A DNA stretch of 62,244 nt, the filler included, from Malassezia furfur (lineage: Eukaryota): assembly GCA_052055015.1 (NCBI GenBank). It is 24 parts of 24 records of this genome, joined end to end, with 100 filler letters (N's around TTAATTAATTAA, not from the genome) between each part and the next. Parts side by side here need not be neighbours in the genome. Positions count along the whole stretch, not along the records: positions 21,046 to 23,557 come from JBQJIT010000898.1; 23 more parts are not named here. One strand, given 5' to 3'. Below, piece after piece: positions 20,946 through 23,714 of this stretch. Each line of letters opens with the position of its first letter. Position 1 is the first letter of the stretch. The notes under the pieces were generated by a model. The model was not told the origin of the DNA. It worked only from the letters and a program-made list of their open reading frames with translations, and did not search any database. The translations under genes and the position numbers were made by a program.

Positions 20946-21045
20946 NNNNNNNNNNNNNNNNNNNNNNNNNNNNNNNNNNNNNNNNNNNNTTAATTAATTA
21001 ANNNNNNNNNNNNNNNNNNNNNNNNNNNNNNNNNNNNNNNNNNNN

Positions 21046-21403
21046 ACACGAGGCGCCCCGGGAAGAGGAGGTGCTGGATGTAGTAGGTGGTGCCGCCGAC
21101 GAGGATGGGCAGCGTGTGGCGGCGCTGCAGGTCGGTGCAGAGGTGTGTGGCGTCGGCGAGGAACTGGGTGATGTCGTACTCGTGGGTGGGCGGGAGGAAG
21201 CTGAGCAGGTGGTGGGGCACGCCGCGCTGCTCGTCGGCGGGCGCCTTGTTGGTGATCACGTCGAGACCCTCGTAGGTCTGCATGCTGTCCGCGGAGACGA
21301 TTTCTGCGTGGGTGAGCGCGGCGAGCTCGACGCCGAGCTGCGACTTGCCGGTGCCGGTGCTGCCGACGACGGCGAGGAGCGGGGCGTCGGTGCGCGCGAG
21401 GTC
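21046..21403 (-). CDS. MOD5: tRNA dimethylallyl(isopentenyl)transferase, N-terminal exon with no ATG of its own (3' truncated)
   Basis: LLAVVGSTGTGKSQLG P-loop, SADSMQTYEGLDVITNK, PHHL and VGGTTYY. The exon begins right after CTGAC..CTAG. Confidence 0.93.
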
Positions 21404-21432
21404 CTAGAGGGGTCAGAATTGCGTCTAAGGCA

Positions 21433-23555
21433 CTACAGCTCAAGGTCCTGAAGTCGCGCTGTGTGTTGGCCTCTGTCCAGACGACCGCAGTCCCTGCGCC
21501 GTCCTGCGCCGCAAAAATACGCACCTTGCTGATCATCGCCGCGGCAATCGGGTGGTCTGCGTGAGCGGCATGGCACGTACAAAAGCTCCGGTGCGCCTCG
21601 AACGTCGTGCGCGCGAGCGGCGCGTTGGCCTTGTACAGCGCCTTGTAGATCGCGCGGCAGTACTTCATGCGGCCCTTGTCTTTGACCTGGGTTAGCATGC
21701 GACGCACCCAGTCGGCGGCCTTCTCCTCGTAGCCGCTGTGCGGCGTCGCGAGCGCCAGCTCAAAGAAGCGCAGCGGGATCTCGTCGTTGGCGTTGTCCGC
21801 GAGCGCGTACGCCTCGTCGAGCCACTGCACGGCGTACGGCGGCAGGGCGCCCTGCGCCGCGAGGTGCTCGAGGAAGACGACCTTTTGGTTCGCGTTCCAG
21901 CCATCCATGTCGCCGCGCGCAAACGTGCGCTGCGCGTCGGCGCGCGTCGGCGCCGCGTCGACGACCGCGCGCCACTCGTCCGCGAGCCGGTAGGCGTCGC
22001 GCGCGAGCGTCGTGTCGTACTCCATCGCGACCGGGAGCTTGGTGCCCTCGCCGTAGATCCAGGCGTCCCAGTCGACCTGCTGCAGGCGGCGCGACACCTC
22101 GGCGTTGTCCGCGTAGTACGCGAGCAGGTGCGCCTTCCACTGCTCCGTGCTCACCGCGCGGTCGTGGAAGGCGCAGAAGTACGCCTTGATGTACGGCGCA
22201 AAGACGTCGAGGCCGCCGACGACGCGCTCGAGGTGCAGGAGGAAGTTGGCGCCCTTGTCGTACGGGATCGTGCTGAACGCGTCGTCGGGGTCCTCGCCGT
22301 CCTCGTAGCCGGGGACGAGGCGCTGGAAGCGCGGCTTGTCCGCGAAGCCCTCGAGCGCCGCACGCAAGGCGCGCGCGCCGATGATGTACGAAAAGCCGCG
22401 GTGCGCGGGCCCCTCGGCGTCGCCGTACTTCTTCTGGAGCAAGAGGCGCTCGAGGTACACGGTCCAGCCCTCGTTGAGCCAGAACGAGTCCCAGTTGACA
22501 CACGAGGTGAGGTTGCCGCTCCACGAGTGGCACAGCTCGTGCAGCAGCACATCGGTCGCGCTGCGGTCGCCGCACACGAGGCTCGGCGTGAGCGTCGTGA
22601 GGTTCGCGTTCTCCATGCCGCCGTACGGGAACGACGGGGGGAGCACCACCGAGTCGTACCGCGTCCAGACGTACGGCGCAACGACCTCCTCGGCGAGCGC
22701 CAAGAAGCGCTCGGCGTCCGCCTCAAACTCCCACTGCACGGCGTCCGCGTCGGGCGCCTCGGCCCACACGCCCGTGCGCGGGCCGAGCGTCCGGAAGGTC
22801 AGCTCCCCGCCGACGATCGCCAGCAGGTACGTCGGGATCGACACGGGCTGCCGGAAGGCATACTGCTTCTGCCCGCCGCCGACGTCCTTCGGCTCCGCGG
22901 CCTGCAGCGCCGACATCAGCACGGGGATCGACGAGGTGACCGTCGCCGTGTACGTGATCTTGCGCCCCGGCGCATCAAAGCACGGCACCAGCGAGCGGGC
23001 GTGGATCGCCTGGCACTGCGAGTACAGGAACGGCGCCTGCTTCGCGTGCGTCTGCTCACGCGACAGCCAGCCGAGCGCCGTGCACGCGTCGGTGGTCGCG
23101 TAGGCGATCTCCACGGTGACCTCGGTGCCCGCGTCGCGCGCGCCCAGCTGCACCACGAGCGGCTGGCCGAGCGCCTTGTGCCGCGCACGCAGCTCGGCCT
23201 CCGCCGGCTGCCCATCGACGCGCACGGCGCCGATGTCGAGGTACGACGTGTCGAACACGGCCTGCGACGTGCCCTGCTCGAGGACGTGCAGCGTGTGCGT
23301 CACGGTGCCCGCAATGCGCTTCTGCTCCCAGTCGACCGTCCAGTCGAGGTGCAGGCGCTCGGGGCGCAGCTCATTCAGGTTCGACAGCGAGTGCCGGTCA
23401 AAGATCTTGCCCTGCGCGGGCGCGGGGATCGCGTCCGGCGCCGGCGGCGTCCACGTCTTTTCGCTCATCTGTGCAGCGTGCGTGGCGGCGGGAAGCGTCG
23501 AGCGGGTTCGCACACAGCCGAGGGACGAGAAGGTGCGTGCCAGCAGTCGTAGCAT
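21433..23555 (-). CDS. LTA4H: Leukotriene A4 hydrolase / M1 aminopeptidase
   Basis: SQCQAIHARS, GGMEN, HELCHSW..NEG and PYDKG. Introns 21687-21707 (21 nt), 21557-21580 (24 nt) and 21448-21524 give ...FYHPIAAAMISK-DLEL*. A second in-frame ATG is at 23468. Confidence 0.95.
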
Positions 23556-23714
23556 GCNNNNNNNNNNNNNNNNNNNNNNNNNNNNNNNNNNNNNNNNNNN
23601 NTTAATTAATTAANNNNNNNNNNNNNNNNNNNNNNNNNNNNNNNNNNNNNNNNNNNNGACCCGCGCCGCGGGCGTCGCGCGCGGCCATCGTCCCAGGGCG
23701 CACGGACTACGGGG

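Follow-up and report, generated by a model that had tools for sequence, protein, structure and literature searches.

Introduction

In nearly all organisms other than those considered here, a tRNA-modification enzyme of the MOD5 type is encoded by a separate gene. Yeast MOD5 (structure 3eph) and human TRIT1 belong to the IPPT family and carry the P-loop and DSMQ motifs of that family at their extreme N-terminus. According to PMC7200024, which also describes the functions of these motifs, including the catalytic threonine of the P-loop, yeast MOD5 has two in-frame start codons, M1, giving a form with a targeting sequence, and M12, giving a form without it, and acts on cytosolic and mitochondrial tRNAs. 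Fungal LTA4H, or Lap2 (leukotriene A4 hydrolase; yeast 2xpy, human 1hs6), is an unrelated enzyme with an M1 fold, zinc motifs and a C-terminus of the form K/Q-DLGL. The pairing of one splice donor with two acceptors to produce two C-termini that differ in function or location, both from one fungal locus, is known from SKI7/HBS1 and from the peroxisomal isoforms of glycolytic enzymes in Ustilago maydis. Here we analyze a 62,244-nucleotide stretch of Malassezia furfur DNA (assembly GCA_052055015.1; the window), in which a MOD5 coding frame without a start codon lies directly behind LTA4H on the same strand. The anatomy of the junction and its conservation in relatives suggest that the route to MOD5 expression is very probably a splice from the last LTA4H donor to a second, distal acceptor located past the LTA4H stop codon. 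As judged from genomic sequence, the MOD5 of this Malassezia and of its relatives out to the smuts can apparently be obtained solely via LTA4H exons.

The locus shares with yeast MOD5 and TRIT1 the IPPT enzyme family, the N-terminal motifs and the need to serve both tRNA compartments. Unlike yeast MOD5, however, MOD5 here and in related Ustilaginomycotina has neither a start codon nor a targeting sequence of its own, and splicing from LTA4H would supply both. On the LTA4H side, the proximal splice product would retain the M1 fold, zinc motifs and terminal motif of the yeast and human enzymes, but the Ustilaginomycotina genes differ from other LTA4H in bearing a basic presequence followed by a second Met, as well as a second acceptor behind the stop codon. 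Compared with SKI7/HBS1-type cases, in turn, the alternative exon would here comprise a whole unrelated and ancient enzyme of ~450 residues.

A MOD5 frame without a start codon

The LTA4H and MOD5 pair occupies a single contig (window positions 21046-23557, 2512 b, 69% G+C), with both genes on the minus strand in the order LTA4H-type M1 peptidase, then the first 119 codons of MOD5. The MOD5 coding exon (21047..21403, minus strand, opening DLARTDAPLLAVVGSTGTGKS...) is cut off at 21047 by the end of the contig (21046). Its translation matches Pfam IPPT (PF01715) with an E-value of 4.1e-23 (cut-off 23.6 bits) and also matches bacterial MiaA structures; against yeast Mod5 3eph the E-value is 1.7e-24 and the alignment begins at chain residue 4. 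Both family motifs are present in the expected order, an N-terminal P-loop GSTGTGKS (21364-21341) and SADSMQ, ending at Met 21283. What this MOD5 lacks, relative to the family, is a start codon of its own upstream of the P-loop. The frame begins at 21403, right behind an in-frame TAG (21406-21404), and the ATGs of the minus strand in this region lie at 21698, 21668, 21571, 21536 and 21283, leaving the interval from 21533 to 21284 free of ATGs. The first in-frame ATG (21283-21281) is thus the Met of DSMQ, downstream of the P-loop, and the leader of 13 codons that separates the TAG from the P-loop in the window includes neither an ATG nor a near-cognate codon. These observations bear out the initial annotation, which had described a MOD5 frame opening at 21403 behind a TAG that doubles as a splice acceptor, a preceding CTGAC, the positions of the ATGs, a first in-frame ATG beyond the P-loop and a phase-0 donor at 21524; all of these sequence statements hold.

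The portion of MOD5 upstream of Met 21283 shows the marks of a functional coding sequence. Residues G14-L23 of the P-loop region are invariant across an alignment of 11 Malassezia-type sequences, and wherever P-loop codons differ between the window and the related loci L001, L002, L005 and L012 (introduced below), or from one of these loci to another, the change is synonymous. A human IPTase begun at the homologous DSMQ Met, and thereby deprived of the P-loop (TRIT1(57-467)), is reported in PMC7200024 to be inactive on mitochondrial and cytosolic tRNAs. On this comparative evidence, the stretch upstream of Met 21283 is both coding and required. Since the leader provides neither an ATG nor a near-cognate codon and the P-loop region is needed, the start codon would have to come from sequence that precedes the TAG, and a splice would be needed to connect it to the MOD5 frame.

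One donor and two acceptors

Consensus donors in the vicinity of the MOD5 frame are found only at 21707, 21580 and 21524, the last of which (AAG|GTGCGT, phase 0) ends the LTA4H exon encoding (Y)HPIAAAMISK (21525..21556, minus), which contains the ATG at 21536-21534 (the Met of MISK). Two acceptors follow this donor. The proximal one, at 21448, closes an intron of 77 nucleotides (nt) (21448..21524, minus) in which a CCAAC precedes the TTCAG acceptor by 18 nt. It opens a terminal LTA4H mini-exon, GAC CTT GAG CTG TAG (21433..21447, minus), encoding DLEL and a stop codon and matching the C-termini of yeast and smut enzymes. A 29-nt spacer (21404..21432, minus) separates the LTA4H stop from the MOD5 frame and contains the branch consensus CTGAC at 21416-21412 and the distal acceptor TAG at 21406-21404. 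This CTGAC, arranged as CTGAC-N5-TAG and located 9 nt before the distal acceptor, is the sole CT[AG]A[CT] motif within 21380-21620. The distal intron, composed of 21433-21524 plus the spacer, would measure 121 nt.

As the initial annotation had proposed, either acceptor can be joined to the donor at 21524. Joining 21525 to 21447 yields ...FYHPIAAAMISKDLEL*, reaching the LTA4H stop, and with the 24-nt and 77-nt introns removed the LTA4H protein ends in ...FYHPIAAAMISK|DLEL*. Joining 21525 to 21403 instead gives 788 codons without a stop up to the contig end. At the DNA level the junction has the make-up of a tandem-acceptor unit, namely a consensus donor, two acceptors each accompanied by a branch-like motif, and open frames across both joins. 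The proximal C-terminus is the natural LTA4H end, given that yeast 2xpy finishes with ...QDLGL (ending ...YHPICKALVKQDLGL) and that Ustilago nuda and Sporisorium scitamineum have EKDLGL, and HPIA..[MLQ]I.K is kept in all LTA4H proteins compared, including 2xpy. Three Agaricomycotina models (P0186, P0206, P0233) carry the tails KVS and KVR, as produced by reading through a donor at this point. Judging from these protein models, an intron after the same Lys seems to predate the linkage of LTA4H and MOD5.

We propose that the MOD5 coding sequence, instead of forming a free-standing gene, would belong to the LTA4H transcription unit as an alternative terminal exon at its 3' end, with donor 21524 able to pair with either acceptor, each with its own putative branch point. 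Use of the proximal acceptor (21448) would add four codons and a stop, yielding an ordinary LTA4H with the ending KDLEL. Use of the distal acceptor (21404) would skip the mini-exon and lead, in frame, into MOD5 as ...AAMISK-DLARTDAP-LLAVVGSTGTGKS.... The anatomy and its conservation can be read directly from the DNA, whereas the proposal infers that the distal acceptor is used, which codon starts translation and what the role in targeting is.

Conservation of the junction in relatives

The significance of the junction derives from its conservation in relatives. Metagenome contigs were scanned with an alignment of MOD5 N-terminal sequences, yielding 51 loci. LTA4H was found upstream of MOD5 on the same strand in 7 of the 51, comprising L001-L006 (Malassezia, 66-70% identity) and L012 (50% identity in MOD5), which correspond to four lineages besides the window (L001; L002/3/4/6; L005; L012). 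Donor phase, proximal mini-exon, distal acceptor and MOD5 frame are kept in all five lineages with DNA (5/5). The donor reads ...HPIAA(A/T)MI(R/S/E)K|GT(A/G)(C/A)GT, in phase 0, in every lineage. The proximal mini-exon opens YAG|GAYCT and encodes DLGL-stop in the relatives (DLGLVA-stop in L012), compared to DLEL* in the window. The distal acceptor follows 11-30 nt past the mini-exon stop, and the MOD5 frame opens there in phase 0. A CTGACC-N2-5-TAG|GA(C/T) element occupies the same position in L001, L002/3/4/6 and L005, while L012 has a T-rich polypyrimidine tract and CAG|GATCTT. The distal intron, by comparison, would vary in length across the five lineages (57, 67, 93, 121 and ~142 nt). In each lineage compared, the first codon of the distal exon is for Asp and the second for Leu, Ile or Met (DLART, DIHAH, DMRRH, DLHVD and DLHLS in DNA; DLSCD, DLAPS and DLNIA in gene models), and the residues thereafter vary. 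In L001, L002 and L005 the gene pair is flanked by an upstream gene in divergent orientation and a downstream gene in convergent orientation, and there is hence no intergenic room for a separate MOD5 promoter.

The 44 remaining MOD5 loci served as a control. In 39 of these 44, the open stretch that leads from the closest preceding stop to the P-loop, with introns kept in, contains at least one in-frame ATG, and frequently there are two ATGs with a basic stretch between them. Of the five exceptions, two have a frame that stays open as far as the end of the contig, two lack an ATG, and one shows no P-loop by the pattern used.

The same comparisons address the possibility that the missing start codon is an artefact, either because an assembly error deleted the ATG or because MOD5 is a pseudogene. 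The fragmented nature of the assembly, with contigs of 2.5 kb and a MOD5 cut by a contig end, would be compatible with such an error, and the initial annotation had itself named a misjoin or lost bases as a way in which an ATG might be restored. Yet independent assemblies of other lineages, and the models of finished genomes, show the same ATG-less architecture, the protein of an independent Logan contig (P0006) matches the window with 100% identity over 79 residues from 21283, and the substitutions in the P-loop region are the synonymous ones described above. An artefact or a dead gene is thus very improbable.

Another conceivable route is an independent, unspliced MOD5 transcript translated from an unconventional start, be it a non-AUG codon, re-initiation past the LTA4H stop, or read-through or a frameshift out of the mini-exon. 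Near-cognate codons (ATT, TTG, GTG) do occur in the leaders of L001, L005 and L012, the L002 group has a true ATG 14 nt past the LTA4H stop (codon 2, the only in-frame leader ATG in any of these lineages), and the mini-exon is in the MOD5 frame in L005 and L012. However, near-cognate codons are entirely lacking from the window leader, the mini-exon and MOD5 are in different frames in the window, L001 and the L002 group, and such a transcript would offer no reason for a branch-plus-acceptor to be kept exactly where the frame opens. We consider an unconventional start very unlikely, although somewhat less so than an artefact.

Specific variants of these routes were tried and rejected individually. 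Read-through or a frameshift from the mini-exon is ruled out as a conserved route, because the mini-exon does not keep a single frame with respect to MOD5 (2, 2 and 2 in the window, L001 and the L002 group; 0 and 0 in L005 and L012). A GT inside the mini-exon fails as a donor, being in the wrong frame in the window and, in L002, leaving no more than 15 nt. A non-AUG start was discarded for the window for want of a near-cognate codon in the leader.

Public gene models

The search for proteins combining Peptidase_M1 and IPPT domains that the initial annotation had suggested recovered such architectures, with 7 fused models among the best 120 MOD5 relatives listed. The seven come from Malassezia psittaci, M. 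yamatoensis, M. vespertilionis and M. cuniculi, from Melanopsichium pennsylvanicum and Tilletiaria anomala, and from one JGI model. Together with P0277, these fused 'leukotriene-A4 hydrolase' models are 1049-1248 aa long and are automatic predictions. The M. vespertilionis model P0007 contains the exact proposed junction, AAMIRK|DLAPSP. A search against 1.84 billion cluster representatives found both halves matched in one stretch in only two of the best 150. For P0007, contact between the LTA4H half (residues 200-632) and the MOD5 half (residues 633-1101) was given a score of 0.00 (mark 0.34) in a prediction run without controls, and this score counts neither for nor against a contact.

Fused models share the two-domain order proposed here, but elsewhere in this clade annotators have kept LTA4H and MOD5 as two genes and let MOD5 begin at the Met of DSMQ, which shortens it. 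Each of the four Ustilaginaceae MOD5 models with a species name (P0240-P0243; U. trichophora twice, S. reilianum and U. esculenta) opens with MQIYKGLD, at this Met. They are consequently without a P-loop and are probably truncated models, and their annotators evidently found no upstream ATG either. No paper linking LTA4H with MOD5 or describing a fused architecture was found in the literature, and one supplement of PMC5389616 names neither LTA4H nor MOD5. As far as these literature searches reach, the architecture is visible in unreviewed database models yet undescribed.

Start codon and targeting

Two readings of the distal splice were put forward in the initial annotation, an alternative 3' splice-site fusion of LTA4H with MOD5 and an internal start at the MISK Met. 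The splice that both share is strongly supported by the conservation of its elements in 5/5 lineages. The likeliest distal product would be a bifunctional LTA4H-MOD5 protein initiated at the LTA4H start codons, and we give an even chance to the full fusion being translated in this way. In the window, the first ATG of LTA4H lies at 23555-23553 and a second Met (MSEKTW...) at 23468-23466, and the 29-residue presequence between them contains 4 R+K and 0 D+E, so that it looks like a mitochondrial targeting signal. Presequences of 29-32 residues with 4-6 R+K and no D/E are found in four Malassezia lineages (window, 23555-23466, minus; L001, ~1918-2010; L002, ~1990-2080; L005, ~1842-1940), in each case followed by a second Met at the point where shorter models begin. 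Smut-type LTA4H (P0139, P0141, P0145, P0277) has a presequence of up to 78 residues and then a second Met; named LTA4H of Agaricomycotina and Pucciniomycotina mostly begin right at the conserved core. The two Mets around the basic presequence could supply mitochondrial and cytosolic forms of MOD5, as the two ATGs of MOD5 do elsewhere. The fusion is favoured because the LTA4H of Ustilaginomycotina bears the presequence and second-Met module that MOD5 bears in other fungi. The contrast between 39/44 other MOD5 loci with an ATG of their own and LTA4H presequences of 29-78 residues would fit a targeting module that moved from MOD5 to LTA4H. In addition, the constant Asp-Leu/Ile/Met start of the distal exon preserves the K-D-L end of the LTA4H fold and therefore fits the fusion, which alone would require it. 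The lack of intergenic room for a MOD5 promoter and the ATG-less MOD5 models of Ustilaginaceae, whose shared exon carries Gln, speak for the fusion as well.

Generalized to the Ustilaginomycotina, the proposal is that MOD5 lost its promoter, start codon and targeting sequence and came to be made as a fusion by tandem 3' splice-site choice, with the dual starts and presequence of LTA4H distributing the product and a phase-0 intron that already existed, four codons ahead of the LTA4H stop, being co-opted as the switch. In this complete form we advance it tentatively, as somewhat short of an even chance.

Several observations weigh against this interpretation. With respect to splicing, the window contains 28 instances of CTGAC-N1-9-YAG, as opposed to 28.4 expected, and thus no excess over chance; intron-like patterns longer than 50 nt occur near background in the window, and an intron of 121 nt is long for a genome whose candidates are mostly 20-29 nt. 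In M. sympodialis, curated introns average 30 bp according to PMC5389616. As the motifs in the window alone are not beyond chance, the case for the 121-nt intron rests on its conservation in relatives. With respect to annotation, the fused models disagree at the junction, where P0003 and P0004 run through the intron and P0049 and P0277 through DLGL, and annotators of M. furfur and of smuts left LTA4H as a separate gene. With respect to the start codon, the leader Met of the L002 group is codon 2 and adjoins the distal acceptor, while M. cuniculi and the species of P0135 and P0008 (paired as a single species from the frame-shifted tail of P0135) have Leu for Met in the shared exon and a Met of their own near the acceptor. 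This Met/Leu pattern would fit selection for a nearby start codon, in what are few and related lineages. Lastly, the linker between the two large domains would be only ~8 residues long, and a long 3' untranslated region on the proximal isoform might be costly if the poly(A) site is shared.

Part of this evidence would suit a separate MOD5 mRNA, transcribed from a promoter that lies within the LTA4H coding region, towards its 3' end, undergoing the same distal splice and starting at an in-frame LTA4H Met. The candidates are the MISK Met at 21536 (giving MISK-DLART...) and the GRMKYCR Met at 21668 (giving a basic leader of ~40 residues), and the product would be an ordinary-sized MOD5 that borrows 4 to about 45 codons from LTA4H. 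The donor, acceptor and phase evidence applies equally to this scheme. A Met is present in the shared exon of every lineage with an ATG-less leader (window, L001, L005 and L012; models P0003, P0007 and P0019), and the two Leu lineages have the Met close to the acceptor just described; the Met/Leu alternation is, however, also seen in LTA4H of fungi without the arrangement and is hence not diagnostic. MISK plus the leader would place 12 residues before the first strand, like the short yeast Mod5 (3eph from residue 4), but this form would have no mitochondrial targeting sequence. Overlapping transcription units are common in Malassezia, where PMC5389616 notes overlap of untranslated regions and fusion artefacts; a promoter within the coding region would nevertheless have to persist across the subphylum. 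The Met of GRMK[YF]CR is universal and could serve the Ustilaginaceae too. In that family the shared exon carries Gln for Met (AAAQIEK) and the four named MOD5 models (4/4) are still without an ATG of their own, so a MISK-type start is not a general solution. An internal start would furthermore leave the constant Asp-Leu/Ile/Met start of the distal exon unexplained. On balance, an internal start appears possible rather than probable from the sequence evidence, and it is not mutually exclusive with the fusion.

Implications of the shared locus

Should the spliced fusion prove correct, a housekeeping tRNA-modification enzyme would be expressed only via the exons of a neighbouring gene in a whole fungal subphylum, and the locus would provide a clear natural case in which alternative splicing joins two unrelated enzymes and a single targeting signal is re-used. 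In public annotations of the clade, MOD5 is either joined to LTA4H or shortened to begin at a Met from which an inactive enzyme would be made, and gene predictors for compact basidiomycete genomes must permit this layout. In U. maydis, the tRNA-IPT is UMAG_10043, which has been used in work on cytokinins (PMC7680852), and knock-outs or expression studies of UMAG_10043 or of LTA4H may touch both functions.

Contig context and other features of the LTA4H gene

The window consists of 24 unrelated contigs of ~2.5 kb each, in order of decreasing length, separated by artificial linkers of the form N44-TTAATTAATTAA-N44. The linker preceding the contig described here (20946..21045, no strand) is one of 23 with regular spacing, another being 23558-23657. 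Neighbourhood across linkers is without biological meaning, and sequence beyond the contig is unlinked to it. No remainder of MOD5, corresponding to its C-terminal two thirds, was found elsewhere in the 62-kb window.

The assignment of the upstream gene to LTA4H follows from its translation, which contains the three domains of an M1 aminopeptidase / leukotriene A4 hydrolase (Peptidase_M1_N, 5.6e-23; Peptidase_M1, 2e-40; Leuk-A4-hydro_C, 6.5e-23), together with the HELCH...WLNEGW zinc motif and GGMEN. A relative, P0143, matches 2xpy and 1hs6 at ~1e-141, and the LTA4H of the contig is 95% identical to Malassezia furfur CBS14141_003342, which places the organism in the furfur group of Malassezia. 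The main coding exon spans 21708..23555 (minus) and is followed by a probable in-frame intron of 21 nt (21687..21707, minus; GTGCGT..CTAAC.CAG) that contains the ATG at 21698. Reading through this intron adds VRRMLTQ, seven residues that are missing in the M. yamatoensis model P0004 (AADWVKDKGRMKY). The next exon (21581..21686, minus) carries the GRMKYCR Met (21668-21666), a candidate internal start, within a GRMK[YF]CR motif kept in every LTA4H protein compared. A 24-nt intron that splits a Tyr codon (21557..21580, minus; GTACGT...CTCACGCAG) contains the ATG at 21571 and precedes the shared exon. It is present in the organism of the window and missing in L001-L006 and L012, and therefore represents a lineage-specific gain or loss.

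Two sets of public sequences from M. furfur and related material differ from the gene structure given here. The M. furfur model P0121 (CBS14141_003342) joins ...HRSF to SRLQDLEL and leaves out the YHPIAAAMISK exon; since this exon is conserved from yeast to basidiomycetes, the acceptor in P0121 was probably set wrongly. The Logan contig proteins P0001 and P0006 show short in-frame insertions relative to other species (e.g. VRRPLTQ), which look like tiny introns read through. Because of this resemblance to unspliced introns, the contigs in question are taken as genomic and as carrying no information on splicing.

Very short introns appear to be a general property of this genome. The pattern GT[AG]NGT...CT[AG]A[CT]-N1-9-YAG occurs 31 times in the whole window on both strands, compared to 9.0 +/- 3.3 expected, and the same GT[AG]NGT...YAG intron pattern at <=50 nt occurs 23 times, compared to 2.4 +/- 1.5 expected, with most candidates falling in the 20-29 nt range. 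The pattern thus offers a usable signature for the very short introns of this genome.

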